Origin: a virus
Lineage: Duplodnaviria; Caudoviricetes
DNA length: 64,000 nt
IMG/VR virus record: IMGVR_UViG_3300033075_001196
Location: 60,388 to 124,387 of that record
Direction: 5' to 3' (one strand)
Part shown: positions 41,790 to 63,999 of the stretch, in pieces
How positions within the stretch are numbered: position 1 is the stretch's first letter
How the letters are laid out: each line of letters opens with the position of its first letter
The notes under the pieces: model-generated
Database searches by the model: none
What the model was told of the DNA's origin: nothing
What the model saw: only the letters and a program-made list of their open reading frames with translations
Made by a program: the position numbers and the translations under genes

Positions 41790-41804
41790 TAAATTTTAAT
41801 TAGT

Positions 41805-42694: not shown

Positions 42695-43075
42695 TTATAT
42701 TTTTTCAACTAATTTAAAATTAATGTATTCTACTAAATTGTTTTTATATAAAAGTAATTGATTATTGTAAAGTGACCAATCAATTGGATAATTAAATATT
42801 AATTGTCCATTGTTTGTCCGCTTAATTATTTCGTTAATTGCATTGATTGTATATAATGTATTTGATTCTGCTTTTCTGTGTATTATAATTATTCTATTTA
42901 TTAAATCATATTCCTCAGTTACAGTAAATGTACAAAAATATTCGTATGGTTTGTCTATATTATTATATATAAATATAAAATTATTGTATTTAAACGTAGA
43001 TTTTATATAATTAATTGTCAATTCCAAATTTGATTTCGGAGTAAACATACACAACAGCCTTGATTTTTGTTCCAT
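42695..43075 (-). CDS. Hypothetical protein
   Basis: LLCMF..HRK.ESNTLYTINA.N..W..Y. Confidence 0.7.
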   Translation of the reverse strand: MEQKSRLLCMFTPKSNLELTINYIKSTFKYNNFIFIYNNIDKPYEYFCTFTVTEEYDLINRIIIIHRKAESNTLYTINAINEIIKRTNNGQLIFNYPIDWSLYNNQLLLYKNNLVEYINFKLVEKI

Positions 43076-43087
43076 TCTTCATCACTC

Positions 43088-48052: not shown

Positions 48053-48361
48053 TTAAAATTGTTTTGCTATCATTAAATCATAAATTTCATTTGCAGTATA
48101 TGTTGCAGGAATTCTAATTCTCCTTCCTGCGGGGAGAACCATAGTACCATATGGTAAACCAGTATTTGCTCTCTGTATTACCCACCATAACCTTGGATCT
48201 CCATAATGTTCATATGCTAATAAATCCATTCTATCGAGTTTTTTGGTTATTATATAAATATCTGATGGGCGATATTCGAATTCAGGATAGTACATTGTTT
48301 CATAGCTACGTTTTTTACCGTCTCTTTGTATTAATGTTACTACATCACTATATCTTTGCAT
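48053..48361 (-). CDS. Baseplate wedge LysM-like protein (gp53/gpX-like)
   Basis: DRMDLLAYEHYGDPRLWWVI..AN..G..IRIP. Confidence 0.8.
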   Translation of the reverse strand: MQRYSDVVTLIQRDGKKRSYETMYYPEFEYRPSDIYIITKKLDRMDLLAYEHYGDPRLWWVIQRANTGLPYGTMVLPAGRRIRIPATYTANEIYDLMIAKQF

Positions 48362-48909
48362 TATTTTTCACCTTTTATGTATTGATTTGTGTGTCCATAC
48401 GGACCATCATCTTGTGGTTTTCTATAATCTGGTTTATTTATTCCTATAAATTTTATATCCATTGAACATTGAATATATAATGGAATTTTGTCTATCCAAG
48501 GTGATTCATTATCCACTGAAAATGTCAGCGATGTTATGATTCCCACTCCTGAAATATATTTACCAAGATACATTCTAACATATATACCATTGAATCCTTG
48601 GCCTCTTTTGTAGATTGGATATGTTAATGATGCCAATGAATTCATTTTTTTCATATTAAGATGGTGTTCTTCATTTTGTAACGCCATTATCTTAAAATCT
48701 ATAGATACATTTCTACTAAATTGATTGTACATCATCTTTGGATCTGCTCTTCCCATATCCATATGTTCTGACCACTGCGGTGAATAGCTATCAGATATAC
48801 TATCCACAAATGCATTCAAATTAATTTTATGTTTTTCTACTTCACCTTTAGTTGGGACTATAGGAATGAATGCAAATGGTGTGCCGCCTTCTGGTATTGT
48901 TGATGCCAT
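48361..48909 (-). CDS. Tail-tube initiator/baseplate protein
   Basis: DSYSPQW..GRADP..Y..F.R..I.F..SL..YP..G.ITSL..W; follows tape measure. Confidence 0.6.
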   Translation of the reverse strand: MASTIPEGGTPFAFIPIVPTKGEVEKHKINLNAFVDSISDSYSPQWSEHMDMGRADPKMMYNQFSRNVSIDFKIMALQNEEHHLNMKKMNSLASLTYPIYKRGQGFNGIYVRMYLGKYISGVGIITSLTFSVDNESPWIDKIPLYIQCSMDIKFIGINKPDYRKPQDDGPYGHTNQYIKGEK

Positions 48910-51900
48910 TATCTATTATTTAATCCTCTATTAATGTTATTTAATTCTTTTTGTGTTTCTCGTCCAATTATAGCGGGAACTGGTCTGCTAGCATAATATG
49001 CAAATCCATCAATTAATTCACTTAACAACCTTTCCATTTTTGCTGTACTTATTGGTTTTGAATTTACATTTGTTGTTTCTGTAGATGCTGTATTTTGTAC
49101 ATCATTAGACATATATGATTCACCAACTGTAGGAACTATAGGGGCAACAGTCGCCGGGGCTATATTTGTCATATTCATTGATGGTGTACTAACTATAGGA
49201 GTAGATCCGCCAATTAAAGAAGATTGTGTTGCTGTATTTATTGATAATTGTTTATTTATTTCTAAAGAATTATCTCCAACATCTTTTAATTTTTTTAAAT
49301 CTATAGATCCCAAAATAACAGCTAGCTGTGTTAAACTGTCTGATAGTACTTTAATAGAATTAGCTACTATAGACATTGGATTAGCTAATAATGCTATTTT
49401 TTCTAATTTTTCAAATGGATCTGTTGTAAATAATGATGTTAATCCCTGTATAATACTCCCAGCACTTATAGCTGCTAATCCTGCGGCAATTCCCATCAAA
49501 GCTGGTCCTATCATTATTAGGTTACTAATATCCATATCTGCCAATGTTCCCATTAATTTAGTTATTCCATCAAATGTTGATGTGACTATTCCAGATATTC
49601 CTGACAATATGCTAGAAACTATAGGTTCAAATTTAGTAATCGCATCTCCCACTACATTTAAGGCTTTTCCAAATAAATATAATACACCAGTCATAGCTAA
49701 CATTGCCGCTATTCCTAATCCAAGTCCAACTGCACCTACGCCAGATCCCATCACCGCACCTAATTCTTCTACCGCAAGTATTAATCCACCAATTGCTGCT
49801 CCAGCCATAACTAATGAACTAAAATTTACAGAATTAAATTCTTGCATCGCCTTTGCTGTAGTCCATAAGGCACCTGACATGATTACTAATGCTGCCGCAC
49901 CTAGTAATGCTTTTGGTTGAAATTTATTTAATCCATTGGCCATTCCAGTAAATACACTTTCAAAGAATTTTCCAATTCCTTCTCCAAGATTTACTAAAAC
50001 CTGTTTAATTGTATCTGCAATACTGACAATTAAATCTTTTAATTTACCAAAACCTTCTTGTATTTTTTCTCCGATCTTACTAACAAAATCTGATAATTTA
50101 GATAATTTAGAAGTTGATTGACTAGTATCCGTTACATTGGTTGTTGTAGCTTCTTGAGATATTGTTTGGGTTGCATCTGCCTTACCAGTTAATTTACCAA
50201 GTAATTTACTTAAAATTCCTTTTTTAGATTCAACTTGATCAGTAATTGGTTTAATTAAATCAGTGTCCTCTGCCTTCTTTTTAAAGAATGAAAATGGATC
50301 AAATGATTTAAATTTATCTGTAATTGTTTTAAATATACTTGGCTTGGTTAATTGGCCAACTACTGCTTCGCTAGCTGTTGCAGCCTGACCACCGAATCCG
50401 CTAAATACTTTACCAAGTAATTTATTAACACCAGTTAATTTACCTAAATATCTTGCACCAAATAATCCTCCGATCACCATTCCTATTTTGCTAATAATAT
50501 CTGATGTTTTATTTAAACCAGAATTCATTCCATCAATTGATGAAACTGCATCTGTTGATTTTCCAAATAATTTTTCTAATCCAGTTACAAGCCAAGTTAT
50601 TAATTCACCTGCCCATTGGAATGGTAAAAAGAATCCTTTAACTAATGGTGTTATAAATTTAATGATACCACCTATTACTTTAAAGCTGGCTCCTATGGCA
50701 TCTAATATACCAGTTGATGCTCCTAATGCATCTGACATAGATTCTATAATTGGAACTAATGCTTTATATAATATGGCCTTTATTTTTTCAAACGCTACTG
50801 CTAATTTCTTTGTAGAATTTAATTCTTCAGCTTTAGCTTTCATATTTTCAAGGTTCATATTACCAATATCACCAACCTTATCCATGTTGGCTTGTAATAT
50901 TGCCATTTGATCTGCATCTAATTGGCCAGACATTTCTTTGAGTTTGATAGATTTTCTTAAATCTCCTATCTCCATACCTAATGTAGATGCCAATTTTCGT
51001 TGTGTAAATTCTGACATCTCGTTGAAATCTTGCATGGTACCAATTTGATCCATGATTGATTTCATCGATTCTTCAAGCTTGCCTGACATTCTTAAATCAA
51101 ATGCCTCTGATAAGTTTAATTTGCCTCCAGACATAGCAGCTAATTCAGTCATATCTGTCATGAACCCTTCAATGTTAAGCATCTTATCAGCAATTTGTCC
51201 TGCTTGTTTAATACTCATACCCATTCTTCTAATTTGAATGGCTGCCTTTGCTGCTTGGTTTGGCATTCCAGCAAAATATAAGGATACTTCTTTTGATCCT
51301 TCAATCAAATCCTTCGCAATTATATTAGGAGCAATACCTGCTGCTTCTGACATATAACCAATATCAGCTAGTAACCTTTGTGATAATGAATCATCTGCCC
51401 CTATTTGTTTAAATAAAGTCATTAAATCCATAGCATCAGTTGCAAGAATACCAAATGCTTGTTCAGCATTAGTTGCAGTCGCCACCAATTCTTGATTAGA
51501 TTGTTTAGATAAATCTAAAATTCTGCCATTTGATTCTACTTGTTTCTTCTGTATCTCTAATATTTGTTCTTCTGTTATAAATCTATTACCTGATGCTGAA
51601 ACTAGTTGCAATGAATCTTCCACCATTTTCTTTGACGTTGCTCTAGAAACACCCAATTCCTTAGATACATTGCTCACTTTATCTTCAAGGCCTTTAACTA
51701 ATCCTACTATTGCTGCAATTCCAATTATTAATAATCCTACTGGACCTAGCATTGATGTTATAGATCCACCAAATGTTTTTAGAGCCTTTGTTGATGCCAT
51801 TAATTTAGATTCACCATTGGCCAAAGACACTGCGTATTTTTGTAATCCCACATTTAATGCATTGGTAATCTGACTCTGAATATTGCTTAATCCCAACATC

Positions 51901-53132
51901 CGTTGCATACTATACGGAATAATATCTAACATAGTTTGTGCTGAAGTTCCAATTTGACTAAATTGATCTTCAAATTTACTAGTAATTTTAAAAATATCTG
52001 AATATGCACTGTACTGTTTATTAGTTAAATCTAAATGATCTGCATTTGTTTGTAACATAGATTTTGAAGAAGCATATTGTCCTAACAATATTTTTTCTTC
52101 TTTATTTAATAATGATATTTTATTATTGATATCAGTTAATTCAGATTCGGATAAGTTTTTAATATCATGCAGACTATACGCAATATCATCGTATAACTTT
52201 ATTCTATCTTCAATCGCAAAATTAATCATATTTGCAGATGTTCCTAAAATTTCTGTTTGGGTTTGTATATCTGTTAATGCACCAGTAGACATATCTTGTT
52301 GATATCCCATAGAAAGAGCAACATATGATTTTAACTTCTCTTTTCTAAGTTTAAATTCTTCATCAATTTGATTACGTAGTAAAGTAGTTGTATCACTGAT
52401 TCCTGAAATGGCTGAACTAAAATCAATTTCTGCAGAGCCTGGTGTCATTTGTACACCAGTTGATTCTGAATTCATTGCACTTTGTATTTTATTAAGATCA
52501 TCAGAATGCTTTTTAATATCATCTAGATTAATCTTTTCAGGAGAGAATAAATTCGGAATTGTGCTATCAGCAAGATCAAAAAATCCTTTAGTAATTGATA
52601 CACCTTTAGTTAAATCAATATTAATATCTTTAATTTGTTTACTATTGGAATTGACTGATGCTTGAAATTTTTTATATTGATCTGCTAAATCAGATACTAA
52701 ATCTAATCTTTCTTTATATATATCTTGTTGTGTTTCCTCTTCTTCAGTAATGTCTTCTTTAACTGTCAATTCTTTATCTAAATCAACTAGTAATTCTCTT
52801 TTAATTGATACATAACTTTCCGAATTTTTTAATGTTTCATAGGAAATACTTTGTAATTCTTCCCATCTATTAACTAATTTTCCAGCTGATTCGTCGGATA
52901 ATTGTAATTGTTTTAAATAACCTTGAAGCACCGGTTTAGTGTCAAATTTACCTTTAGCAACTCCTTCTAAAGCTCCTTGTACTTGTTCGCGAGTTGTTAA
53001 TATACCTTGATTGGCAGCTTCTAGTACTAAGACTAATTCTTTAATCTTGGATTCAATTGACGTTGTAGTTTGATTTAAAACTTCAATGGTCTTTTTAACA
53101 GACGCTGTATATTTCTGTAGATTTTCCGGCAT
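48909..53132 (-). CDS. Tail tape measure protein
   Basis: 1407 aa, helical, Ala/Gly-rich hydrophobic repeats, after the tail chaperones. Confidence 0.88.
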   Translation of the reverse strand: MPENLQKYTASVKKTIEVLNQTTTSIESKIKELVLVLEAANQGILTTREQVQGALEGVAKGKFDTKPVLQGYLKQLQLSDESAGKLVNRWEELQSISYETLKNSESYVSIKRELLVDLDKELTVKEDITEEEETQQDIYKERLDLVSDLADQYKKFQASVNSNSKQIKDINIDLTKGVSITKGFFDLADSTIPNLFSPEKINLDDIKKHSDDLNKIQSAMNSESTGVQMTPGSAEIDFSSAISGISDTTTLLRNQIDEEFKLRKEKLKSYVALSMGYQQDMSTGALTDIQTQTEILGTSANMINFAIEDRIKLYDDIAYSLHDIKNLSESELTDINNKISLLNKEEKILLGQYASSKSMLQTNADHLDLTNKQYSAYSDIFKITSKFEDQFSQIGTSAQTMLDIIPYSMQRMLGLSNIQSQITNALNVGLQKYAVSLANGESKLMASTKALKTFGGSITSMLGPVGLLIIGIAAIVGLVKGLEDKVSNVSKELGVSRATSKKMVEDSLQLVSASGNRFITEEQILEIQKKQVESNGRILDLSKQSNQELVATATNAEQAFGILATDAMDLMTLFKQIGADDSLSQRLLADIGYMSEAAGIAPNIIAKDLIEGSKEVSLYFAGMPNQAAKAAIQIRRMGMSIKQAGQIADKMLNIEGFMTDMTELAAMSGGKLNLSEAFDLRMSGKLEESMKSIMDQIGTMQDFNEMSEFTQRKLASTLGMEIGDLRKSIKLKEMSGQLDADQMAILQANMDKVGDIGNMNLENMKAKAEELNSTKKLAVAFEKIKAILYKALVPIIESMSDALGASTGILDAIGASFKVIGGIIKFITPLVKGFFLPFQWAGELITWLVTGLEKLFGKSTDAVSSIDGMNSGLNKTSDIISKIGMVIGGLFGARYLGKLTGVNKLLGKVFSGFGGQAATASEAVVGQLTKPSIFKTITDKFKSFDPFSFFKKKAEDTDLIKPITDQVESKKGILSKLLGKLTGKADATQTISQEATTTNVTDTSQSTSKLSKLSDFVSKIGEKIQEGFGKLKDLIVSIADTIKQVLVNLGEGIGKFFESVFTGMANGLNKFQPKALLGAAALVIMSGALWTTAKAMQEFNSVNFSSLVMAGAAIGGLILAVEELGAVMGSGVGAVGLGLGIAAMLAMTGVLYLFGKALNVVGDAITKFEPIVSSILSGISGIVTSTFDGITKLMGTLADMDISNLIMIGPALMGIAAGLAAISAGSIIQGLTSLFTTDPFEKLEKIALLANPMSIVANSIKVLSDSLTQLAVILGSIDLKKLKDVGDNSLEINKQLSINTATQSSLIGGSTPIVSTPSMNMTNIAPATVAPIVPTVGESYMSNDVQNTASTETTNVNSKPISTAKMERLLSELIDGFAYYASRPVPAIIGRETQKELNNINRGLNNR

Positions 53133-53351
53133 CTATTTTCCTTTTTTATCCTTACATAGAATATGCCATGGCTGGTGTTTACAAAAGTGTTCTAAATTAT
53201 CTTGGAGATCTAATGTGCGTTGTTTGATATCCTTCAATTTTGCTTGAAGGTTTGGATCAGAATCAACTTCCTTTCCAATTTGATCTAACACTTTTTTAAA
53301 TTGAGACTTGACCAATAATTTAGCTAGTCTCACAAATATATTATCAGCCAT
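53133..53351 (-). CDS. Hypothetical protein
   Basis: 72-aa ORF preceded by ATATTTAT. Confidence 0.6.
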   Translation of the reverse strand: MADNIFVRLAKLLVKSQFKKVLDQIGKEVDSDPNLQAKLKDIKQRTLDLQDNLEHFCKHQPWHILCKDKKGK

Positions 53352-53383
53352 TTCTTTATAAATAAATATAAAATTATTCTAAA

Positions 53384-53692
53384 TTATTTTCGGCCGCGTT
53401 TACGCTTCTGTTTTTCAGCTTGTTCCAAACGAGCTTCCAGAATTTTAGACAACTTAGAAAAATATAAATTTCTAATTGTTAATGGCATTGTATATATATC
53501 CTGATAAGTAAACCCACCTTGAGCTTGAAATAGGAAGTCGAATAATTCATGATGAATTTTTAACTTATATTCTGGAGTAATACCGAAAAAGGAATGATCT
53601 AATATTAATGTATTATCCCTTGAAGTCTGGCCAGAATAGATCCAATCCGAGTGAAATTTCAGAACGAAAGGGTTCACCGGTAGCCTCATCAA
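53384..53692 (-). CDS. Tail assembly chaperone, second part (conserved portion probably begins near FFGITPEY, ~53590)
   Basis: H.ELF....GGFT..DIY.MP...R; +1 frame overlap with the upstream chaperone. Confidence 0.65.
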   Translation of the reverse strand: MMRLPVNPFVLKFHSDWIYSGQTSRDNTLILDHSFFGITPEYKLKIHHELFDFLFQAQGGFTYQDIYTMPLTIRNLYFSKLSKILEARLEQAEKQKRKRGRK

Positions 53693-54491
53693 CTACCTCT
53701 ATTTTTAGATCAACATCAGGTTGCACTTTACCAATAAATTCTCGAAGTGATCTTGAATCTATAGCTCTCATATTAGCTATAGCTGAATTAATTACTCCAA
53801 CATCTGTATTACCATCAATTGATTTTATCATATATCTTAACCTAGTAGTTAAGTTTGTTTCAACTTGGCCTTTACCAGCATATTTCTTTTGTTGTTCTAA
53901 AGACTGTTCAATTTGTTTTTGAATTCCTACTGTTAATAATTGAAATTCAACAACCTGCTTTGATGATGGTAATGTGAATTTGAAATGAGATGTACCAGGA
54001 ACTAATAAAGACTCATCAATTTCTTTATGCTGTATTTGTGTAAGGTCAACATTAACTGGTTGTGCTACTCCTGCAGAATTTGTTATTTTAGTTTCATATA
54101 TTGGACCATATCCATATATTCTTGCTGCAACCATAATGGCATTTCTATCTCCCAGTAACAGGTCATCATATTTAAATTTTGTAACCAGCATTGCTTGAAA
54201 TAATTTATCTAGTACCGTTCCATTTTTTATATACGATGTAGTAGATAAGATATCTTCCTCTGCAGTTGTCATATACTTCATTTCTACCTGACCTTTACTA
54301 AGAGGGGAATCAGATGAATATAACAATCCTTTGCTTGGCAGATCTACTAATTCTGTTGGGAAACTGTATATAGATGTTTGTATTTTAGCTTCAGTGGGAA
54401 TTTGAAGCAATTCTTCAACTATTGGTGGTTTAGCATTCAATATTGGTGATTGGTTTGAAGTATCACTATTTGTCAAATCATTAATTGTCAT
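53613..54491 (-). CDS. Tail/baseplate assembly chaperone (gp26-like); start probably ATG 54491
   Basis: LPSKG..Y, MTTAEEDIL, LLLGDRNAI..AR..GYG, DS..LR, FWP. Confidence 0.75.
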   Translation of the reverse strand: MTINDLTNSDTSNQSPILNAKPPIVEELLQIPTEAKIQTSIYSFPTELVDLPSKGLLYSSDSPLSKGQVEMKYMTTAEEDILSTTSYIKNGTVLDKLFQAMLVTKFKYDDLLLGDRNAIMVAARIYGYGPIYETKITNSAGVAQPVNVDLTQIQHKEIDESLLVPGTSHFKFTLPSSKQVVEFQLLTVGIQKQIEQSLEQQKKYAGKGQVETNLTTRLRYMIKSIDGNTDVGVINSAIANMRAIDSRSLREFIGKVQPDVDLKIEVVDEATGEPFRSEISLGLDLFWPDFKG

Positions 54492-54545
54492 AAAACTTAT
54501 CCTTTTATTTATTAATAAATATAATATTGATGTAAATTTTAACAT

Positions 54546-54578
54546 AAAAAAAGGATATAAAATTAATTATACCCTTTT
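54546..54578 (-). terminator. Intrinsic terminator after tail tube/holin
   Basis: Sense AAAAGGGTATAA..TTATATCC followed by a T-run. Confidence 0.7.
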
Positions 54579-54598
54579 CTTTTAAGTTTTGATTTAAA

Positions 54599-54793
54599 TT
54601 AAGTTGTAGTCTTTCCTTTAAAATAACCATATATCATTGTAATTACACCAATTATAGTGGTTACTGCTTGCCATGTTGAGTCAAAGTTTGCCAGCGTAAA
54701 TTCAATGATTCCTGCGAATTTACCAACACCTAATGCAGTTAATAAAACTCCAATGCCGGTAAGAATGTGTCTAACTAAAGATTTTGTGATCAT
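54599..54793 (-). CDS. Putative holin (two TM segments)
   Basis: RHILT..G motif, two hydrophobic helices, basic tail. Confidence 0.6.
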   Translation of the reverse strand: MITKSLVRHILTGIGVLLTALGVGKFAGIIEFTLANFDSTWQAVTTIIGVITMIYGYFKGKTTT

Positions 54794-54823
54794 GTTTTTA
54801 TATTTATGTTGTTTAAAAAATTG

Positions 54824-55285
54824 TTAACTTAATACTGCGTAATCATATTTAATTGTCAGTTCTATTGTCTTCGCCTCATCTGTTGCCCAGTCCATATCTC
54901 CCCAATTTGAAGCACCAATAAATGCACCATGAATAGTCCATTTTTCTACAGATGATCCGTGTGGATCTAATGCCTGAATAGTAATATCTTTCTTATATTC
55001 ACTAAATGCAAATCCATCGACCCCACTTTCTGAATTGTGGTGAGTTTTAATCCAATCGTGTACTTCCTTTGCAGCACTTGGATCAACTGGATCATATAGT
55101 GTGACTGTAATGTCTTGCCATCTAGACTTTCCTTTAACTTTAAAATCTGTATTGATATAATCAATTACAATTTCTCCGTTGTCAATGGATGGCATTGAAG
55201 TTGCTTTGCAAACAAATGCTGTAATTCCGTTAATTAGTAATTTGTGTCTAAATGCTACTTTAGGTTCAAATGGTGTAAATATCAT
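54824..55285 (-). CDS. Tail tube protein (gp19-like)
   Basis: EPK..R, W.DITVTLYDP, YKKDI..LDP.G..VEKW..GAF..GDMDW, YDYA. Confidence 0.9.
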   Translation of the reverse strand: MIFTPFEPKVAFRHKLLINGITAFVCKATSMPSIDNGEIVIDYINTDFKVKGKSRWQDITVTLYDPVDPSAAKEVHDWIKTHHNSESGVDGFAFSEYKKDITIQALDPHGSSVEKWTIHGAFIGASNWGDMDWATDEAKTIELTIKYDYAVLS

Positions 55286-55330
55286 TTTTCTTTTCCTTTT
55301 CCTTTTATATAAATATTACTAATTTTTATT

Positions 55331-57157
55331 TTATTTCTTTGCATCAGCATCAACTGGAAATACAGCTGCTGTTGGTGTGATGATAAAATCGGTTATAATA
55401 AATTCCGCCGTCTTTGCAGGTTTTAAATATATCTGCGCTCTCATTTCATTTCTATCGATTACATCAGGTGTATTATTTCTATCATCAATTATGATTTTGA
55501 AATCATATAACCCTTGTTTTCTCCTACAATCTTCGAACCAAGGTCTAGTTAAGTTGATATATTTAGTTCTAGTCTCTACTGTATTTTGTTCGAATACCAA
55601 ATATTTGGCTGTATCTGCTACGTGTCTCTTAGCCGCAATTAATAATCTTCTAACATTAATTCTATCTAATGCGCTTCTCTTCTTTTGTAATGTCTTTTGT
55701 CCCCAAACTACAATACCATTTTTAGGGAAAGTAGCAATTGGATTAATATTCTTCGCATAAAGATTATCACGATCGCCTTGAGTCATTATTCTTTCAGTTT
55801 GGATAACTGTATCTAATGTACCTCTATTTAAACCTGCAGGTGCAAACCATTTGAATCCAAAATAATCATTGAATGCATAAACTCCAGCTACCATTGGGCT
55901 TGGTGGAACCCATACATTTTCTCCTAAATCTGGATCTGGAACTTGCATCCACGGATAATAATATCCTGCATAGTTACTATTTCTAGCTTCAGCTATAGCT
56001 CTTGCTTGACCAACAGTTGAACCAAAATAGGTTGGATCTACAACATAAAATGCATCACCTCTATCTTCAATCATTGATATTGCTCGAGTAATTATCTTTG
56101 CATGGTCTTCAAGATTATCAATTAATCCTGGAGTCATAAATAAATCAAAATCAAATTGATCTTTATTTGCTAGCATATCTATTGCATCTTCATATGCTGT
56201 TTTACCATATGATGATGACGCTAAATTGAATCCTTGCGTGTTAAGATTCCAAATTGCTTGATTCATAGATTTTGGATGGGATACATTTCCATCAGATCCG
56301 CCTGCAAATGTTCCTGACATTGCGGTTGGTAATGATCCTGACAATGAATTATCTCTTATTGTTCCATTATCATTTAAGTAATTCAATGTTGATTTGTATA
56401 CTTGTACTCTAACAAATCTTGATCTGTTTGGTTGGCTACCAGTTAATTGTAAGTACGGTGCACCATTTGAATCATATCTTAATGAATTTACTTGATCTCC
56501 AATTACTTTAGTAATAAAATTACTAGTATTTGGATCTAATGATAAATTACTGAATTGTTCTAATATAATCTTTCTACCAGATGTATCATCACCTCGTCTA
56601 ATATAGAGATCAAATGTACCTCTATTATTATCAATATTAGCAGTTTCCCATCTAATATTATATCTTGATCCACTTTGTAATAAACCTTCAGTTTGAACTT
56701 CATCTGCAGTAATACCTGATCCTGATAGTGCTGCTAAAGTAGCTCCACTATTACAAACATCGCCATCTGTTAATGCAATCAATTTAAATGACATATCAGT
56801 TGATGTAAAAGATGATGTTGGAGTATTAGCTGCCTTTACAAATGAATATGCTGGTGTATAAGATCCTGCTAATATTCTTGTTACAATAACTGTTTCTCCC
56901 CATCTTAAATATTCTTGAACTGCATAGGTTGTCAAATATTTGTATTCCTTTAAACTTGCTCCTGATCCAGAAGAGAATACATCTCCAAACCATCTAAGAT
57001 ATTCTGAATATGTTGACACAGTTGTTGGTACCATTGCTGGGCCACGAACTGTTGGTCCCACTACACACAATCCAGGTGCAATTGTTGCCCCTTGATAGAA
57101 TGATATGTCAAATTCTCGGTTGAATACACCGGCACTTAAATACAAATTATTTGCCAT
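55331..57157 (-). CDS. Contractile tail sheath (gp18-like)
   Basis: SAGVF.RE.D, WFAPAGLNRG, INPI..GQKTLQ..SALDRINVRRLL, FEQN, P.KTAEFI. Confidence 0.95.
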   Translation of the reverse strand: MANNLYLSAGVFNREFDISFYQGATIAPGLCVVGPTVRGPAMVPTTVSTYSEYLRWFGDVFSSGSGASLKEYKYLTTYAVQEYLRWGETVIVTRILAGSYTPAYSFVKAANTPTSSFTSTDMSFKLIALTDGDVCNSGATLAALSGSGITADEVQTEGLLQSGSRYNIRWETANIDNNRGTFDLYIRRGDDTSGRKIILEQFSNLSLDPNTSNFITKVIGDQVNSLRYDSNGAPYLQLTGSQPNRSRFVRVQVYKSTLNYLNDNGTIRDNSLSGSLPTAMSGTFAGGSDGNVSHPKSMNQAIWNLNTQGFNLASSSYGKTAYEDAIDMLANKDQFDFDLFMTPGLIDNLEDHAKIITRAISMIEDRGDAFYVVDPTYFGSTVGQARAIAEARNSNYAGYYYPWMQVPDPDLGENVWVPPSPMVAGVYAFNDYFGFKWFAPAGLNRGTLDTVIQTERIMTQGDRDNLYAKNINPIATFPKNGIVVWGQKTLQKKRSALDRINVRRLLIAAKRHVADTAKYLVFEQNTVETRTKYINLTRPWFEDCRRKQGLYDFKIIIDDRNNTPDVIDRNEMRAQIYLKPAKTAEFIITDFIITPTAAVFPVDADAKK

Positions 57158-57244
57158 TAATTATTTCCTCATGTTATTTTATATGTCCAATTTATTATAA
57201 ATATTTTGTTTTTTTCTTAAACATTATATTTGATTAAACTTAAT

Positions 57245-58099
57245 TTAGATTTTTGAATGTCCTGACCTATTTACTAATCTGGATTTAGGAGGATTCATTC
57301 CGTTTGGTTCATAATCTACTATAATGTTATCCTGTTCCACTTCGTTTTGAAATACAACTCTTTTAATTGTATATGCCTTTTGTACATTTGATTCTTTAAG
57401 ATCAAATTCATTTTGTAGTAATCCATCCACTAATAATGGAATAACACATTTAGCTGCTCTGTCTTCACCAATATTGTTTGTGACATCAAATGAATAATCT
57501 TGAATTTTTGTAACAAATTGAAATACATCTCCCCATGGGACATTATCATTTGGCACAATAGACTCTACAATTTTATTTAAATGATTTACTGTTTCAGCCC
57601 ATACTGTTAATTCGTAGCTCACACGAACATTAGTTGGAATTGCTGACACATACATTTCATATGATTTATTATTATTTTCTCTTGGAAAATCATGCGCGTT
57701 ATTTTTCTGTGTTGCTGGATAGAATATTAATGAATTTGCAGAATCTTTATATTTGCTAATTCTTAATTTTGAAAATCTATCATCTTCAACCATGCTTATT
57801 CTTTTAATGGAAATTAAAGGCACCATTATTTTTCTATTATCGTCTCTTAAGTATCCTTGTCGTTGAATTTGATCCCATTTTTCGCCATTAGCAAATATTA
57901 TTGGAACATTTAATACTTGACCATTTTGCTCTACTTGTGGTTGTATTTTTTCTTTTAAAAAATAATATATAGCATAATCAATATCATAGATTGTTATTGA
58001 TGGTACAATAAATGTATCATTATCCCTTCGAATATCCTCAGCCCTATTTCTTGAGCCATCTTCACTTCTAGATATTGAATCTATTTTTGGATTTTGCAA
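57245..58099 (-). CDS. Probable tail terminator/completion protein
   Basis: Lies between neck and sheath; DID.AI, VPII..EKW, PLI; TTG start. Confidence 0.55.
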   Translation of the reverse strand: MQNPKIDSISRSEDGSRNRAEDIRRDNDTFIVPSITIYDIDYAIYYFLKEKIQPQVEQNGQVLNVPIIFANGEKWDQIQRQGYLRDDNRKIMVPLISIKRISMVEDDRFSKLRISKYKDSANSLIFYPATQKNNAHDFPRENNNKSYEMYVSAIPTNVRVSYELTVWAETVNHLNKIVESIVPNDNVPWGDVFQFVTKIQDYSFDVTNNIGEDRAAKCVIPLLVDGLLQNEFDLKESNVQKAYTIKRVVFQNEVEQDNIIVDYEPNGMNPPKSRLVNRSGHSKI

Positions 58100-58107
58100 T
58101 TTTTTCC

Positions 58108-58659
58108 TTATATATTTTTAGGATATGATGGATCAATATATTCTTCTGTTGGATCGCCTGTCCTTAAATTATCTTCTATATTTAATGTATTTCTTTTCGT
58201 TTGATGTGTTTCACATACAATTGTATGATCATATCCATGTAATGCCCAATTATTTTGAGTCATCCCAATATTGGTATTTGGATTTCTGTCTGACCAGTAT
58301 TTGTTATCATTTACATTATCCACTTCAAAATAAGTATCATCATACATTATGATATCACCTTCTTGCAAGAAAATATTTTGATTTTTTAAATCAGCTTTAA
58401 GAAATGAAAATATAATTGATCTGTTAAAATCTAATATATCTGAATCTGTTTGAGATTGTTTATCTTCTGGTGTTGATTTAGCAAAGACTCTCACTCCTGG
58501 TTTATATCTTCGATCAATTGCCTCCCCATATATATTGGTAGATGTTGATTCATGAGATATTTTAAATATCAATACTTCTGAACTGATTACTTGATGCATC
58601 AATTCCATACTAATTCCTCTTAAAAATCCAGCGTCTCTATTACCAGTGAAAAGTGCCAT
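58108..58659 (-). CDS. Head-closure/neck protein (gp14-like)
   Basis: NIYGE, EGDII..FEV; synteny. Confidence 0.6.
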   Translation of the reverse strand: MALFTGNRDAGFLRGISMELMHQVISSEVLIFKISHESTSTNIYGEAIDRRYKPGVRVFAKSTPEDKQSQTDSDILDFNRSIIFSFLKADLKNQNIFLQEGDIIMYDDTYFEVDNVNDNKYWSDRNPNTNIGMTQNNWALHGYDHTIVCETHQTKRNTLNIEDNLRTGDPTEEYIDPSYPKNI

Positions 58660-58661
58660 AA

Positions 58662-59816
58662 TTACCTCACATATATTGCTAATGGTGCTTTCATCAATTG
58701 ATTTTGTAATGCATCCGATTCAGCTTGTTTTCTTTCCAATTGTGCTTGCCTTGAAGTACTTTCTAATAACTCTTTTAATTCCGTCAACAAATTTTCTTGT
58801 TCTGCGGAAGCCTGTGTAATTAGATCAGAAGCATTTAAAGTTATCTCAGAATCTCCAAATGGTAATGAACTATACTTTCCACGAATTAATCCCAATGTTT
58901 CTTTAGCTATAGATAATCCATATCGTCTTATCCAATCTTTACCTAAATCATTAATTGTTGAATATGTTAAATTTGAATATGGTATATTACTTATATCAGA
59001 TATTTTACCAGAATTTGATCCTGATAAATTAGCATCTAATACTTCCGAATCTAATGTGTATTGAAATCTTAAAGTCAACTCTTCAACTGGTACTGGAAAT
59101 ATCCATAACCTGTCATTTGTTAATTGGAAACTGTATGCCGATCCCCTAATTTGATCTGACATTTCTATTGCTTGAACTTTTATCAAATCATAATTCAACG
59201 GCATTAATATTGATTCACCAGTAGTCCCTTGCCATCCAAAATCTTGCATCAACCCATAATTACCAGTTATATTCATTGGATCAACATTTGCTCCTTGAAA
59301 TGCATTATAAAATATCTTTCTGATAGTAAAAATATCTGTATTGAAGTTACCCTTCTCAAGCGAAACAGAAGAAGTATCTTTAAAGTTATAAACTTGTTGA
59401 CCAATATTTAAGGAAATAGATCCTGTATAATATGTTAAGTTGCCTCCTACTCCAGTTTCAGTTGCATATTGTTTTGCCAATTTGAATACACCTGCTAATG
59501 TTGGTTGTATATATTGTGACTGTAAATCTAATGATGATGTTGGCAAGCCAGACACATTAATTAAATTATCTCTTGCATTAAATAAAGAAATTAATGTACC
59601 ATATTTAGAAACTGCATCTTCAAATGATGCATAAAAATTTAGATCAACTAATTCAATATTAGTAATTGGATATCCTAACCTTTGTGCAGCCCATGTAGCA
59701 AACTTATCACAATCAGTTCTAAATGAGGCGTCAGTATCATAAAATCCAAATGGGGTAGAGCCAGTAGTAAAACTACTAGAACCTGGCCATATATAAATCA
59801 TTGGTTCAAACGCCAT
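58662..59816 (-). CDS. Neck/head-tail adaptor protein (gp13-like)
   Basis: RLGYP..IEL, WIRRY..KE.LG..RGKY..LN..E..L. Confidence 0.75.
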   Translation of the reverse strand: MAFEPMIYIWPGSSSFTTGSTPFGFYDTDASFRTDCDKFATWAAQRLGYPITNIELVDLNFYASFEDAVSKYGTLISLFNARDNLINVSGLPTSSLDLQSQYIQPTLAGVFKLAKQYATETGVGGNLTYYTGSISLNIGQQVYNFKDTSSVSLEKGNFNTDIFTIRKIFYNAFQGANVDPMNITGNYGLMQDFGWQGTTGESILMPLNYDLIKVQAIEMSDQIRGSAYSFQLTNDRLWIFPVPVEELTLRFQYTLDSEVLDANLSGSNSGKISDISNIPYSNLTYSTINDLGKDWIRRYGLSIAKETLGLIRGKYSSLPFGDSEITLNASDLITQASAEQENLLTELKELLESTSRQAQLERKQAESDALQNQLMKAPLAIYVR

Positions 59817-59910
59817 ACTTAATTTCCTTACCTATGTCAATAGTAATTATTTTTATTAATAAATATATTAAAATAGAAAGATCCATTGACACATCTAATC
59901 TATTTAAGTT

Positions 59911-60246
59911 TTATACGTCTTTCCAAAGACCTTGTTGTATTGTTTCTGTATTTTTAAGAGCTTCATACGCCACCTTATAAATATTTCCACCAGTTTCTGG
60001 ATCATATTTAAACTCTACCCCAAATGCATGAATAGGTCTGACATATTTATTCCTTGCATCAGCATCAGCGTACACAAAAACATATGCCATATTTTCAATA
60101 ATTTTTCTAAATTTCAATGTTTCGAAATCATTTTCATCTGTTTCGAAATATTCTTCTTCAGAATTTCCTAAACTTATCTTCCGAATAATAAAGTATGCCT
60201 CTGCATAAAATTGATCCGCGAATGTAAAACTTCCTTGTACTGCCAT
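59911..60246 (-). CDS. Hypothetical protein
   Basis: 111-aa ORF. Confidence 0.65.
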   Translation of the reverse strand: MAVQGSFTFADQFYAEAYFIIRKISLGNSEEEYFETDENDFETLKFRKIIENMAYVFVYADADARNKYVRPIHAFGVEFKYDPETGGNIYKVAYEALKNTETIQQGLWKDV

Positions 60247-60247
60247 A

Positions 60248-60907
60248 TTATTTTCTATATTCTTCTATTAATTTAAAAACATCTGATAAAACTTCATGTC
60301 TGTGATTTTCTTTTAATTCAATAAATGTAATGTGATCGGATTTCTTCAAAATTGATAATATTGTTCCAACAGATTTAAACCTAGTTGATAAATCAATTTG
60401 ATCTAAATCGCCACAAAAAATCATTTTTGATTCTTTTCCTAACCTTCCCAAACACATTATTAATTGGGTTTCTGTTAAATTCTCGAATTCATCTACTATA
60501 ATAACTGAACGTTCGAATGTCCTTCCCCTAAAATGGGTTAAAGCACATAATTCAATTTTCTTATCAGCCTCTAATTGTTTGACCTTTTCAGCATTATATG
60601 CTTTATTCATATTGTCTCTAATTGGAACTAACCATGGATCCATTTTTTCTTGTATTGTTCCTGGTAAGAATCCATTTTCTTCAGAAGAAACAGTTGGTCT
60701 AGTTATAACTATCTTTTCTACTTGTCTGGTAAAAAATAGATCCAATGCAATTTGAGTTGCCAACGCGGTTTTACCAGAACCTGCCCTTCCCATTAGGAAG
60801 TTGATTGGTTTTTGAATTATTAATTCTTTAGCTAATTTTTGTTCTTCATTAAGAACAATATTAAATTTGACATCACCCTTAGGTTTTCGTTTAGTACTAT
60901 TATCCAT
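60248..60907 (-). CDS. phoH: PhoH-like ATPase
   Basis: GRAGSGKT, ITRP, GFLPG, RGRTF, VDE, GD..QID, NHRH. Confidence 0.93.
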   Translation of the reverse strand: MDNSTKRKPKGDVKFNIVLNEEQKLAKELIIQKPINFLMGRAGSGKTALATQIALDLFFTRQVEKIVITRPTVSSEENGFLPGTIQEKMDPWLVPIRDNMNKAYNAEKVKQLEADKKIELCALTHFRGRTFERSVIIVDEFENLTETQLIMCLGRLGKESKMIFCGDLDQIDLSTRFKSVGTILSILKKSDHITFIELKENHRHEVLSDVFKLIEEYRK

Positions 60908-60966
60908 CTTCTCCTAATCTTTATTCTTTAATAAATATTATTTAAAAATTGGTTAACCTTATAAAC

Positions 60967-60999
60967 AAAAAAATAGTGGATAAAATTTTACCCACTATT
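60967..60999 (-). terminator. Intrinsic terminator after the small lipoprotein gene
   Basis: Sense AATAGTGGGTAAAATTTTATCCACTATT followed by a T-run. Confidence 0.75.
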
Positions 61000-61020
61000 C
61001 TAATAATACCTTTGTCGATA

Positions 61021-61179
61021 TTATTTAAGAGAATCAATTGTTGCAGAATCAATTGTTGCTGATGTGCTATCAACAGTTTCAATTGTCTCTACAGTGGGAG
61101 ATTTTGGTGATTTGCACGCAGTTGCTGTAGACATTATCATTATTGCAGCCGCGATTTCAAAGTAATTAATCAATTTCAT
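61021..61179 (-). CDS. Small lipoprotein, 52 aa (not in ORF track)
   Basis: MKLINYFEIAAAIMIMSTATA-C22-KSPKSPTVETIETVDSTSATIDSATIDSLK; lipobox-like ATAC; flanked by terminators. Confidence 0.7.
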   Translation of the reverse strand: MKLINYFEIAAAIMIMSTATACKSPKSPTVETIETVDSTSATIDSATIDSLK

Positions 61180-61261
61180 AATAAGAAGTTTTTTTTAAAA
61201 ATTTTTAAAATCGTATACATAATATATATATTACATTTTTTTGAATTTAATATATGAACAT

Positions 61262-61292
61262 AAAAAAAGGGATGATTTTTCAACCATCCCTT
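61262..61292 (-). terminator. Intrinsic terminator after major capsid gene
   Basis: Sense AAGGGATG..CATCCC followed by a T-run. Confidence 0.8.
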
Positions 61293-61312
61293 AATTTTTT
61301 TATCTAATTAGA

Positions 61313-62947
61313 TTAAATAGAATTTAATCCTTCAATGAATAATTTACCGTAGAATTCTGGTCTCAACATTTTCTTAGCATATCGAGTTCTTATACCAATT
61401 CTTGGAGTAAAGTTATCCGGATCCATTACCACTGGAGTCATCTCTAATGGAATATATGGAGAATAAACCGCACCTGCTTCTAAGAATGAAGCTCCTTTAT
61501 ATCCAACTAATATGCAGTTTTCAGACATATATGGATTTTTGTACACTGTGTATTGGTTATTGATTTGACCAACTTTTCTAGCACCCATTCCGAACTTAGA
61601 TTGTCCACCTGAAGTGTCGACTCCAAATCCTTCAATTGATTCTAAAATTGTGCATATCTTAGGAGAAGTAACTAAAAATGTAGCTCCACCTCTTAATGTC
61701 AATCTATCAATCTCGTTACTCATTTTTCTTAGTTTAGTACCAATAGTTTGGAACCAAGTTTGTTGAGTATATGCTGCTACGTTAGCAGATGTTTGTGTCC
61801 AAGAAGATCCAACTTTTTCATATCCCAATCTAGCTGACCAATAATCAACTGTTTGAGCTCCTTGAATTAACATATCAAGTAATTCAAAATCAATTTCTTG
61901 ATTGATGTACTCACCCAATAATGTAGTTAATTCGCTTTGAGCGTCAATATTGTGATAGTGTTCAATATCTTCCGCAAATTCTGGAGTCCATTGTGCTTTT
62001 AATTTCTTAGATTTAGCAATCAATGTATCTTGGTGCATTTGTAAATCAAATGATGGGATATCCAATGGATCTTCCTGAGTTTTTCCTTCCTCAAAATCAC
62101 CACGTGTAATATCAGTCGGTTGCTTTTGGTAATAAATTACAGCATCTGATGAGCTAACCAATGATCCCGAAACAATAAATGTAACATATGTACCGGTAGA
62201 ATCCACTGCTGTAAATTCTGGAAAGTGTGTATTAAGATTCGTTGCAGTTATACTAAACGCTCTAACACCTTTAGTATCTGGATCAGTTAATCTACTTAAT
62301 GGGATTGTAACTTTCTTTAAAGTTGCACCTAAAGCAGCTTGACTAGCAGAAAATTCTGTGTTATAATTAAGATCAGATAACCAAGAAATTGTATCAATTG
62401 AACCAGAACCTAAAGCCAATTGTCCTGCAGATGCAGTTAACAATAAGTTTTGAGCTGATGATGATACATCATTAATTGAATATGCAAATCTACCTGCGCC
62501 GTAAAGACCACCTGTTCCTACTGCAGTACCTTTCGTTGCATCTGTCACACCCCATACTGAATCATTTTGTGATGTTCTAGCTGCACCAGTTGTAAATCCT
62601 GGTTGGCCAGTTGCATATTTAAATTCTAACCAGAAGACAAGTCCTGATGGTGCATTTAATGGTTGAGTAGAAATAAATTCCTTAGCAGATAAGCTACTGA
62701 ATACACGTCTTACCAACGGTAATGCAATTCCTGACCATTCTTCTCCACCAGCAGTAGTATTAGTTCTGTTGGCTTCTTTAATTAATTGTTTAGCTTGATT
62801 TTCAAGCAAATCAGATACTTGTCCTTCTTGGATAGCATCTAGACCGTCCAACAGTCCTGTTTTTTTCCATTTTAAACGAGTCGCTTCTGTTTGTCTCTTG
62901 CGATTGTTTAATTCCGGATTGGATGTTAATAATGATTTAGTGTCCAT
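61313..62947 (-). CDS. Major capsid protein (gp23-like); start probably ATG 62947
   Basis: KW..TGLL, LLENQ, LPLVRR, QP..PSGL.F, KLKAQWT.E, EID.E, YSPYIPL, FTP..G..TRY. Confidence 0.95.
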   Translation of the reverse strand: MDTKSLLTSNPELNNRKRQTEATRLKWKKTGLLDGLDAIQEGQVSDLLENQAKQLIKEANRTNTTAGGEEWSGIALPLVRRVFSSLSAKEFISTQPLNAPSGLVFWLEFKYATGQPGFTTGAARTSQNDSVWGVTDATKGTAVGTGGLYGAGRFAYSINDVSSSAQNLLLTASAGQLALGSGSIDTISWLSDLNYNTEFSASQAALGATLKKVTIPLSRLTDPDTKGVRAFSITATNLNTHFPEFTAVDSTGTYVTFIVSGSLVSSSDAVIYYQKQPTDITRGDFEEGKTQEDPLDIPSFDLQMHQDTLIAKSKKLKAQWTPEFAEDIEHYHNIDAQSELTTLLGEYINQEIDFELLDMLIQGAQTVDYWSARLGYEKVGSSWTQTSANVAAYTQQTWFQTIGTKLRKMSNEIDRLTLRGGATFLVTSPKICTILESIEGFGVDTSGGQSKFGMGARKVGQINNQYTVYKNPYMSENCILVGYKGASFLEAGAVYSPYIPLEMTPVVMDPDNFTPRIGIRTRYAKKMLRPEFYGKLFIEGLNSI

Positions 62948-62967
62948 TTTTTCCTTTTTTTTATTTA

Positions 62968-63780
62968 TTAAAGACCTGCAAGTTTTTGCCATCTTTCTTT
63001 GTTAACAAATACATTTTCGTTAATTGGTTTAGCTATTGATTTAACAGCCTTTGATGCAGCTCCTTCAGTTATCTTTCTAGCTGGTTTATCATTTCTCTTA
63101 GAAAAATTCCCTGCCATAGTTACATAAACTATTTTAGTTTCTTTAAGGTTATCACATCTATCAAATGCTTCCAACACTTTCATTTTCTGTGCTTCAGTTA
63201 ATGAATACTTTCCTAAAATTTTAGTAGTATATAATAATTTAGCATTTAAAACTCCCACTTCATTAAGTATGGATTTTTGTGAGCTAATTACTTTATACGC
63301 TTCTTTTAATTTTCTCTTCAATTGACGGTTTTCCATTGTTGGTGATGATTTAGGTCCGCAATCTTCATCTTCTTCTGTTTCCAATTCATCTTCAACTTCT
63401 TGAAGAATTTCATCAATCATTTCATCGTCAACTTCTTCTTCTTCAGATGCTACTTCATCAACTAATGGATCATCCATTGTTTCTTCATCTTCCATTCCTG
63501 TGTCGCCTTCTAGTTCGGCAAGAACTTCATCTAAATCAACATCCTCTTCTTCATCATCCATTTCTGGTGCTGCAGGAGGCATTTCTTCTGTAGCTGTAGG
63601 TTCAGCTGGCGGCATTTCTGTGTCGTCTTCTTCGTCTTCTAATCCTTCTTCTGCTATTCTTCTTGAAAGCATTGATTGCATTTGTGGTGCAAAAGCTTCT
63701 GTTAAGGTTGAAATAGCACTTTTTTCTGCAATTGCTCTGACTGCCTTAGCATCAGCTATTGCTTCTTTAAGTAAATTCAT
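62968..63780 (-). CDS. Prohead core/scaffold protein
   Basis: LLKEAIADAKAVR, long acidic region, LNAKLLY, C-terminal RWQKLAGL; directly upstream of capsid. Confidence 0.8.
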   Translation of the reverse strand: MNLLKEAIADAKAVRAIAEKSAISTLTEAFAPQMQSMLSRRIAEEGLEDEEDDTEMPPAEPTATEEMPPAAPEMDDEEEDVDLDEVLAELEGDTGMEDEETMDDPLVDEVASEEEEVDDEMIDEILQEVEDELETEEDEDCGPKSSPTMENRQLKRKLKEAYKVISSQKSILNEVGVLNAKLLYTTKILGKYSLTEAQKMKVLEAFDRCDNLKETKIVYVTMAGNFSKRNDKPARKITEGAASKAVKSIAKPINENVFVNKERWQKLAGL

Positions 63781-63915
63781 TTTAAATTCCTTGTGTAAAT
63801 TGTGTCTCTAAGATTATTGAGAATCTTAATATAGATTGTTAAATAGTTTAACGATTGGATATTGGGGATCCAATATAATTTCTAAAATATATATTATTCA
63901 AATTTTGAAAACATA

Positions 63916-63999
63916 TTATTTTACTAACTTGCTTATAACTTTTTGTTTATGAATCGCTTTAGACATCATGTCTTTTTTGATTCTTGATGGTTTTACATA
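63916..63999 (-). CDS. rpsU: Ribosomal protein bS21-like, C-terminal 27 aa (runs off window edge)
   Basis: Manual translation YVKPSRIKKDMMSKAIHKQKVISKLVK*: [YF].KPS..[RK] and KA...Q of bS21; position upstream of scaffold/capsid. Confidence 0.62.
   Translation of the reverse strand, partial: YVKPSRIKKDMMSKAIHKQKVISKLVK

Follow-up and report, generated by a model that had tools for sequence, protein, structure and literature searches.

The DNA considered here, a 64,000-nucleotide (nt) stretch of a Caudoviricetes contig (positions 60,388–124,387 of IMG/VR record IMGVR_UViG_3300033075_001196; 'the window'), ends inside a phage gene for the ribosomal protein bS21 and carries a block of virion genes, many of which are preceded by Shine–Dalgarno (SD) motifs. 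Translation starts in the contig fall into two classes. The A-rich, G-poor leaders of the host type precede early and replication genes, and a short SD at canonical spacing precedes virion or late genes. The most probable host is a member of the Bacteroidia with ribosomes blind to SDs. Sequence comparison with related phages indicates that the SD bias is probably linked to possession of a phage bS21, because relatives that lack bS21 also lack SDs on the orthologous genes. The evidence is correlative, and we judge it about an even call whether phage bS21 makes SD-blind ribosomes read the SDs of late mRNAs. What is new is the SD as a candidate cis-element and the co-occurrence of its partition with bS21; the bS21 gene itself is of a known kind.

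A phage bS21 gene at the end of the window

The contig (G000) is linear, 124,387 bp long and 30.6% G+C, and the window is its right-hand 64 kb, in which the minus strand carries nearly all genes. It is an incomplete contig of a ∼180-kb T4-like myophage (CheckV completeness estimate, 69%), and the window carries the virion-gene block. By capsid protein, its closest cultured relatives are Microcystis phage Mel-JY01 (50% identity) and Flavobacterium phage vB_FspM_immuto (46%; immuto below).

An earlier note on this DNA had proposed that the open reading frame (ORF) cut off by the contig end encodes bS21, with a KAIHKQ tail in which histidine occupies the position of a host tyrosine, and both points hold. 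The ORF is identified as bS21 because a bS21 profile matches it, it occupies the bS21 position of related phages, and it aligns without gaps to Bacteroidota bS21. A hidden Markov model (HMM) of the relatives' bS21 genes found the fragment as its sole match in the six frames of the 124-kb contig (E = 3e-5, 20.8 bits), and a profile of the closest phage proteins retrieved Bacteroidota bS21 structures first (9i5v_9, 5e-10; Flavobacterium johnsoniae 7jil_z, 2e-9). The translation of window positions 63916–63999 on the minus strand is YVKPSRIKKDMMSKAIHKQKVISKLVK*. It contains the KPS motif and the basic C-terminal helix, and its YVKPS...SKAIHKQK stretch can be aligned gap-free with both FIKPSVVKRAQIQKAAYIQ of 7jil_z and 9i5v_9. 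Alignment to the F. johnsoniae protein assigns S42, K51, A52, H54, K55 and Q56, which places the window histidine opposite Tyr54 and the window lysine opposite Ile55.

The fragment lies where relatives have bS21, upstream of the scaffold and capsid genes and on the same strand. Mel-JY01 has an annotated RpsU at the equivalent place, between the prohead protease and scaffold/capsid, and bS21 is present there in 62 of 118 related loci that were retrieved around their capsid genes. Among full-length relatives, one (L010) scores 31.3 bits against PF01165 (cut-off 27) and another (L003) 26.5 bits, slightly below the cut-off; precomputed PF01165 matches are listed for 13 of 15 close homologues. The 27-residue tail alone has no match in PDB sequences and none in Pfam. 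No match to a degenerate DNA pattern encoding DMMSKAIHKQ turned up among viral contigs, and no cultured phage was matched at 1e-3 when the bS21 of a relative was used in tblastn.

Joining the contig ends leads to a stop codon and does not restore the bS21 gene, and contigs in three other runs extend 206–905 nt beyond window position 63999. In the assembly of run X1, the region from ∼62770 to the window end is split into small contigs (71–458 nt); this fragmentation probably explains why the contig stops at the window end.

Shine–Dalgarno motifs partition with the virion genes

Genes were called mechanically, as the longest ORFs from the first ATG, with starts shifted by at most 60 nt solely to remove overlaps, so that the choice of start was blind to SDs. 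The structural block (42695–63780, 21 genes) was then compared with the 174 other genes of the contig. A genome-wide comparison of SD free energy by temporal class had been named beforehand in the earlier note as a check on its late-gene bias, and the bias is upheld: pairing of positions −17 to −4 with the 16S tail reaches a free energy (ΔG) of ≤−5 kcal/mol in 12 of 21 structural genes versus 18 of 174 others (Fisher p = 2.4e-6), and in 9% of internal-ATG controls. Motifs of at least 5 nt at a spacing of 3–10 precede 10 of the 21 structural genes versus 2% of the internal ATGs, and the enrichment over these controls is 5- to 20-fold in the contig. The difference between structural and other genes persists within intergenic-gap classes (with and without a gap), within gene-size classes and among genes of at least 150 amino acids (aa). 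These position-restricted ΔG and motif-plus-spacing metrics replaced a loose one (ΔG ≤−5 over the whole 20 nt), for which control rates on the coding strand were 18–33% in higher-GC relatives.

The base composition of the leaders separates the same two classes. In the genes of the contig pooled with those of its relative G002, a G peak at −12 to −8 (22–33%) occurs in structural genes alone, and all other genes are G-poor at these positions and A-rich at −14 to −11 (50–64%). An A-rich leader at −14 to −11 is the F. johnsoniae signature (Baez 2019, PMC6847099); the A fraction there is 0.58–0.64 in non-structural genes, 0.61 in immuto and 0.43 in Mel-JY01. Ordinary translation in the host appears to be SD-independent, because ∼400 non-structural genes of three bS21-encoding phages (G000, G002 and G001) are at or below chance for SDs and carry this Bacteroidia-type leader.

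Gene by gene, SD motifs were located at spacings of 3–9 from the start codon, and they are also found where a gene overlaps or directly follows its upstream neighbour, and before one TTG start. They stand before the scaffold, capsid, phoH, neck, sheath, tube, tape measure and wedge genes, as the earlier note had listed. It had also placed one before a chaperone gene; none stands before the genes that separate tube from tape measure (54793, 54545 and 53351), and apart from this its list is upheld. Its A/T-rich leaders on SSB, UvsX (its recA) and queE are found, and the helicase gene has one too. Its nrdJ exception, with AAAGGA, is likewise real: nrdJ and its neighbours bear SDs both in the contig (window 31213–36059) and in G002 (39218–42018), a conserved non-structural departure from the partition, and this region is possibly a middle or late transcription unit.

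bS21 type and SD pattern among related phages

The phage family comprises three genome groups: group I without bS21, group II with an aromatic-type bS21, and group III with a non-aromatic bS21 (Arg, Lys, Leu, Ala, Ser or Asn at residue 54). Group I (immuto, G006 and G005) has no SD pattern anywhere, group II (G000, G001, G002 and G007) has SDs in late/structural modules only, and group III (Mel-JY01, with SDs on 37% of genes, G008 and G009) has them genome-wide and on the bS21 gene itself.

Within group II, the complete 171.9-kb genome G002 encodes a Tyr54 bS21 and has SDs on 22 of 59 structural genes versus 21 of 203 others (p = 5e-6). The corresponding counts in G001 (66 kb, His-type bS21) are 15 of 45 versus 3 of 34. 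The complete 286-kb genome G007, with a Phe-type bS21, has SDs in its 40–60 kb and 100–120 kb bins only, the latter being the head module with bS21. Within group I, immuto has no match to PF01165 or to the phage-bS21 HMM genome-wide, and SDs stand before 0 of its 40 structural genes and 8 of 170 others (control, 13%). G006 (113 kb, without bS21) has SDs on 6 of 143 genes, and G005 (50 kb, bS21 absent from the whole contig) on 2 of 14 genes around the capsid gene (locus L014).

Pooling de-duplicated loci around the capsid gene gives the same picture. SDs occur at 17% in bS21-absent loci versus 21% in controls; in aromatic-type loci, motifs of at least 5 nt at a spacing of 3–10 occur at 24.9% versus 6.3% (3.9-fold, p = 5e-17); and non-aromatic loci show strong SD enrichment. 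The capsid tree splits the bS21-absent loci into three clades, of which one is sister to G007. The capsid of the contig is 47–58% identical to those of G001, G002 and G007, and SDs are retained across that divergence while individual sites turn over.

The type of bS21 co-varies with its own leader. Non-aromatic relatives (L011, L015, L017, L020, L024, L032, L085–L093, L131 and L133) have a conserved GAGGT/AAGGA SD 3–5 nt before the bS21 gene; aromatic-type bS21 genes never do.

Phage bS21 compared with host bS21

The anti-SD of F. johnsoniae is held by bS21, bS18 and bS6, and loss of bS21, loss of its C-tail or the Y54A substitution increases translation of strong-SD mRNAs and decreases that of SD-less ones, with Y54A raising SD-dependent translation 1.7- to 3-fold (McNutt 2023, PMC9976891). 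The bS21 residues that contact the sequestered 16S 3′ tail are Tyr54 and Ile55, and a weakly basic bS21 tail is a trait of the phylum (Jha 2021, PMC7797042).

We compared 27 aromatic-type phage bS21 proteins with 54 distinct Flavobacterium-type bS21 proteins (86–100% identical to the F. johnsoniae query). Residue 54 is Tyr in 54/54 host proteins, whereas the 27 phage proteins have Tyr (15), His (10) or Phe (2). Residue 55 is Ile in 54/54 host proteins, Arg or Lys in 22/27 phage proteins (Lys in the window) and Val in 9i5v_9. The net charge of the C-tail is +2 to +3 in hosts (pI, the isoelectric point, 9.7) and +4 to +7 in phages, with +7 in the window (pI 10.8). Hosts have 40 residues before KPS and phages 54, a 14-residue N-terminal extension. 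Finally, the host gene carries a strong SD in its own leader (mean −19.6 kcal/mol with a 16-nt 16S tail), whereas the aromatic-type phage genes have none (−3.8 to +0.8 kcal/mol with a 12-nt anti-SD probe).

The window bS21 departs from the sequestering Bacteroidia type, with an aromatic-like His in place of Tyr54, Lys in place of the hydrophobic Ile55, and a C-terminal domain that is not weakly basic; K51, A52 and Q56 are retained. The complete protein is expected to have 75–80 aa and an N-extension of the form MNKKEK...GG.G..V, behind a leader without an SD. Among 15 close phage homologues (60–85% identical proteins), His and Tyr alternate. No phage bS18 or bS6 was found in these phages. We also rejected the idea that residue 55 alone determines the SD pattern: a Leu55 clade is without SD enrichment, yet Phe-Leu and Phe-Tyr types are enriched.

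A possible mechanism and its alternatives

Phage bS21 is known to be transcribed with late structural genes, and it has been proposed to enter Bacteroidetes ribosomes and favour late phage transcripts (Chen 2022, PMC9723584). We conjecture that ordinary ribosomes would make phage bS21 from its SD-less mRNA at the onset of late transcription, and that the protein would displace the exchangeable host bS21 on 30S subunits. Given Lys or Arg for Ile at residue 55, a more basic C-tail and the N-extension, the anti-SD would no longer be held in the bS21/bS18/bS6 pocket, and the resulting ribosomes would read SDs and give late phage mRNAs the advantage over host and early ones. An SD-less bS21 mRNA would, in addition, escape the host autoregulatory loop. 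In its fullest form this would amount to a private translation code, in which a phage bS21 variant reopens the anti-SD late and an SD-marked virion regulon, often behind an ATATTTAT motif, is preferred over host and early mRNAs; we advance this fuller version tentatively, at a little under even chances. The earlier note had likewise suggested that phage bS21 could steer ribosomes to SD-bearing late mRNAs. The comparative link between bS21 and SDs supports that claim in a broader form; the histidine as specific cause falls away.

Several observations weigh against the conjectured release of the anti-SD. All of the evidence is correlative, and the independent bS21-absent lineages number only three. 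Just 27 residues of the contig's own bS21 are visible, and genes were assigned to temporal classes solely by their function and position. At −5 to −9 kcal/mol the late SDs are short and weak, and in vitro a weak-SD mRNA did not gain from bS21 defects, strong SDs alone doing so (McNutt 2023, PMC9976891), which argues against the release mechanism. The conserved aromatic residue 54 suggests that stacking on A1534 is kept, that is, sequestration and not release (Chen 2022). A Tyr-type, Leu55 subclade (L007/L076/L077) has no SD enrichment. Lastly, the host of the contig is one that we infer, and among cultured phages the closest by capsid protein infects Microcystis.

Among the alternatives, the one that survives best is that phage bS21 is host-like and leaves the anti-SD sequestered, adding to or displacing the host protein late in infection, and that the SDs act by another route, such as a natural bS21-free ribosome fraction, another phage factor, or standby/S1-type binding to purine-rich leaders. 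In its favour, the protein keeps K51, A52 and Q56, and an aromatic residue 54 is conserved in the clade, which Chen 2022 reads as retained stacking; the late SDs are also weak beside the rpsU SD needed by bS21-free ribosomes. However, this alternative gives no account of the bS21-less relatives that lack, and even avoid, SDs on orthologous genes, and the phage proteins depart from the host type at residue 55, in tail charge and at the N-terminus. Extra host-like bS21 would, moreover, reduce SD reading, yet phage bS21 co-occurs with SD-rich late genes. We consider it unlikely.

Host range and ancestry offer a second route to the same pattern, if bS21 lineages descend from or infect partly SD-reading hosts and SDs and bS21 have travelled together historically. 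The non-aromatic relatives (Mel-JY01 on Microcystis, G008 and G009) do use SDs genome-wide and on bS21, and the groups interleave on the capsid tree. This confound nonetheless sits poorly with the ∼400 non-structural genes at or below chance for SDs behind a Bacteroidia leader, and with the loss of SDs in bS21-less sister lineages. That SDs are kept over deep divergence while sites turn over also points to selection, not to a relic. It strikes us as improbable.

The AAGGA-type motifs might also not be ribosome-binding sites, and belong instead to a late promoter or leader or reflect the composition of purine-rich late regions, although we see only a slim chance of this. Many motifs are short and A-rich (AAAGGA), the promoter-like ATATTTAT co-occurs 28–50 nt upstream (8/18 versus 22/177), and the coding-strand controls of higher-GC relatives are high at the loose ΔG. 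The G peak, however, stays fixed at −12 to −8 from the start whatever the intergenic length. The motifs before overlapping or abutting genes and before a TTG start, together with the enrichment over internal-ATG controls in the contig, also speak for ribosome binding.

Histidine can stack on adenine, which counts against the weakest alternative, the earlier note's suggestion that the Tyr54-to-His change specifically frees the anti-SD; we hold this to be very improbable. Y54A does raise SD-dependent translation in F. johnsoniae and the window protein has His there, but Tyr-type G002 shows the same SD partition, which largely refutes the suggestion. Phe-type G007 has SDs in few blocks only, and His and Tyr alternate among close relatives. 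Phage bS21 proteins with His54 and Phe54 had, moreover, been described before, and the aromatic stacking on A1534 was taken to be conserved in them (Chen 2022, PMC9723584). His54 is a neutral alternative to Tyr and not a switch.

Relation to known systems

The closest published parallel is the set of freshwater Bacteroidetes myophages of Chen 2022, which likewise carry bS21 in the head-gene region, have Tyr and rarely His or Phe at residue 54, and are predicted to infect Bacteroidetes. In those phages bS21 and the capsid gene lie on opposite strands, whereas in the contig they share a strand, with bS21 immediately before scaffold and capsid. That study named no cis-element and concluded that the anti-SD stays blocked; the present contig has SD motifs on its late genes, and bS21-less relatives lack them. 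Among cultured relatives, immuto (MW353176) and Mel-JY01 (PP395634) have the same head and tail gene order as the contig; immuto has neither bS21 nor SDs, and the bS21 gene of Mel-JY01, of the Lys/Arg type, is preceded by an SD, as are genes throughout that genome.

Autoregulation of bS21 (rpsU) in F. johnsoniae (PMC7797042, PMC9976891) involves the same protein family and the same Tyr54/Ile55 pocket for the 16S 3′ tail, and there bS21 occupancy or a change in its C-tail toggles ribosomes between SD-blind and SD-reading states. The host protein has Tyr54-Ile55, no N-extension and a very strong SD of its own; the phage protein has His/Tyr54, Lys/Arg55, the extension and no SD. One gene class uses the SD state in F. 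johnsoniae, whereas in the contig a whole late regulon is predicted to do so.

Two further systems are alike in part. An alternative copy of bS21 changes which mRNAs are translated in Francisella tularensis (PMC9578407), a precedent for specialised ribosomes; as reported, the copy is a cellular paralogue of an SD-using gammaproteobacterium, not a phage gene, and is not tied to anti-SD sequestration. The bS21 of Pelagibacter phage HTVC008M is able to enter host ribosomes (Mizuno 2019, as cited in PMC9976891). Its host belongs to another phylum, in which anti-SD sequestration is not known, and no SD partition by gene class has been reported for it. Full-text literature searches returned no description of a late-gene partition of SD motifs in bS21-encoding phages.

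The role of phage-encoded bS21 has been a question since 2019, and published proposals of phage-transcript selection name no transcript feature. The candidate offered here is an ordinary SD, found on late genes only in phages with an aromatic-type bS21 and absent from bS21-less relatives that infect the same SD-blind kind of host, and the protein features named as relevant are position 55, tail charge and the N-extension. If the release mechanism is true, it would stand as the first instance in nature of a virus that restores a ribosome function switched off in its host lineage, and as a clean natural example of virus-made specialised ribosomes, and it could provide a switchable SD-dependent expression channel for engineering Bacteroidia.

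Genes and other elements of the window

PHROG and Pfam matches support the major capsid protein, PhoH, the sheath, the tube, the gp15-like sheath stabiliser and the gp25-like wedge subunit, and weakly the tape measure protein (Table 1). The scaffold-like gene is named from its position and composition; it has no PHROG or Pfam match and a weak orthologue in G002. The capsid start was revised on the evidence to 62947 from 62992, and the gp15-like start was moved to the TTG at 58099 because the PF16724 match begins before the first ATG.

Table 1. Features of the window and the SD motifs before them (window coordinates)
Feature	Position	Strand	Support	SD motif
bS21 gene, 3′ end, 27 codons, truncated by contig end	63919–63999	−	translation, phage-bS21 HMM, gap-free alignments, synteny with Mel-JY01 RpsU	
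bS21 His54 codon	63949–63951	−		
bS21 Lys55 codon	63946–63948	−		
bS21 stop codon	63916–63918	−		
Scaffold-like acidic gene, 270 aa	62968–63780	−		AAGGA 63788–63792, spacing 7
Major capsid protein (gp23-like)	61313–62947	−	phrog_138, E = 4e-65	AAAGGA 62952–62957, spacing 4
PhoH-like gene	60248–60907	−	phrog_170, E = 2.5e-60	AGGAG 60911–60915, spacing 3
Head-tail adaptor-like gene, 384 aa	58662–59816	−	phrog_211, E = 9e-10	AAGGA 59825–59829
Neck-region gene, 183 aa	58108–58659	−		GAGGT 58664–58668, kept in G002 orthologue
gp15-like tail sheath stabiliser, TTG start	57245–58099	−	PF16724	AAGGA 58105–58109
Tail sheath	55331–57157	−	phrog_23, E = 2e-66	(G)AGGA 57166–57169
Tail tube	54824–55285	−	phrog_4542, E = 6e-33	AAAGGA 55294–55299
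Tape measure protein, 1407 aa	48909–53132	−	phrog_1535 (weak), size, position	AAAGGA 53139–53144
gp25-like baseplate wedge subunit	48053–48361	−	phrog_7145, E = 2e-10	AGGTGA 48368–48373
Final structural-block gene, 126 aa, function not assigned	42695–43075	−		AGGAG 43085–43089
Replication module (SSB, split UvsX, exonuclease, DnaB, queE, nrdJ)	below 42611, just downstream of structural block			SD-poor
ATATTTAT copies, upstream of genes starting 53351, 55285, 57157, 59816 and 60907	start at 53370, 55316, 57204, 59866 and 60938			

The contig comes from wastewater or activated sludge, and runs of such samples from 13 studies contain near-identical DNA. No phage matched the region in a megablast search, the best capsid relative among metagenome contigs is only 64% identical, and exact-protein look-ups of the scaffold and capsid found no identical record. 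RNA contigs from a sludge metatranscriptome overlap parts of the capsid and scaffold genes; neither timing nor strand can be read from them, and no conclusion here draws on them. The Bacteroidota promoter consensus (TTTG...TAnnTTTG) was not enriched over Markov shuffles, a result that is uninformative on the host. Wastewater strains (runs X3, X4 and X17) show an 18-nt insertion polymorphism at window 63595–63600, where the scaffold-like gene has its acidic repeats.

The ATATTTAT motif is a candidate late promoter, and its co-occurrence with SD-bearing genes has p = 0.002. It is also present on the plus strand at genome positions 3784 and 6353, before SD-bearing genes of 786 and 256 aa with no assigned function; these may be tail-fibre genes. 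Intrinsic-terminator-like hairpins with T runs lie at window 61180–61312, 3′ of the capsid gene, and 60908–61020, 3′ of the next 52-aa ORF (GGGATGG..CATCCC-TTTTTTT and GTGGGTAAAATTTTATCCAC-TATTTTTTT), which suggests that scaffold and capsid form a separate transcription unit.

No SD in the contig is stronger than that of a 232-aa gene at window 4659–5357 (AGGAGGT, −11.6 kcal/mol, spacing 5), which lies inside an otherwise SD-free replication/metabolism region; PHROG assigned no function to this gene or to the plus-strand block (genome 2806–8481). Upstream of the tape measure gene, a TTG-started frame of 102 codons (window 53384–53692), without an SD, overlaps the end of a 310-aa T4-baseplate-like gene and could be a frameshift-type tail chaperone arrangement.

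The UvsX/RecA-like recombinase gene is split (window 39459–41789) into an N-terminal part at 41043–41789 and a C-terminal part at 39459–40328, with an HNH/homing-endonuclease-like ORF (40295–40837) between the halves and a second HNH gene (38497–39459) just downstream; its orthologue in G002 is a single 394-aa gene. Outside the window, three near-identical ∼90-nt leaders (GGTTATTTGAAC...TATCTTTATG.CGTAATTAAAAATAAAGTAT-ATG) at contig positions 14419, 15837 and 34288 on the minus strand (loci L149/L150) stand before small genes, and shorter TAATTAAAAATAAAG versions precede other small genes; the ∼90-nt leaders may be an early promoter-plus-leader cassette.

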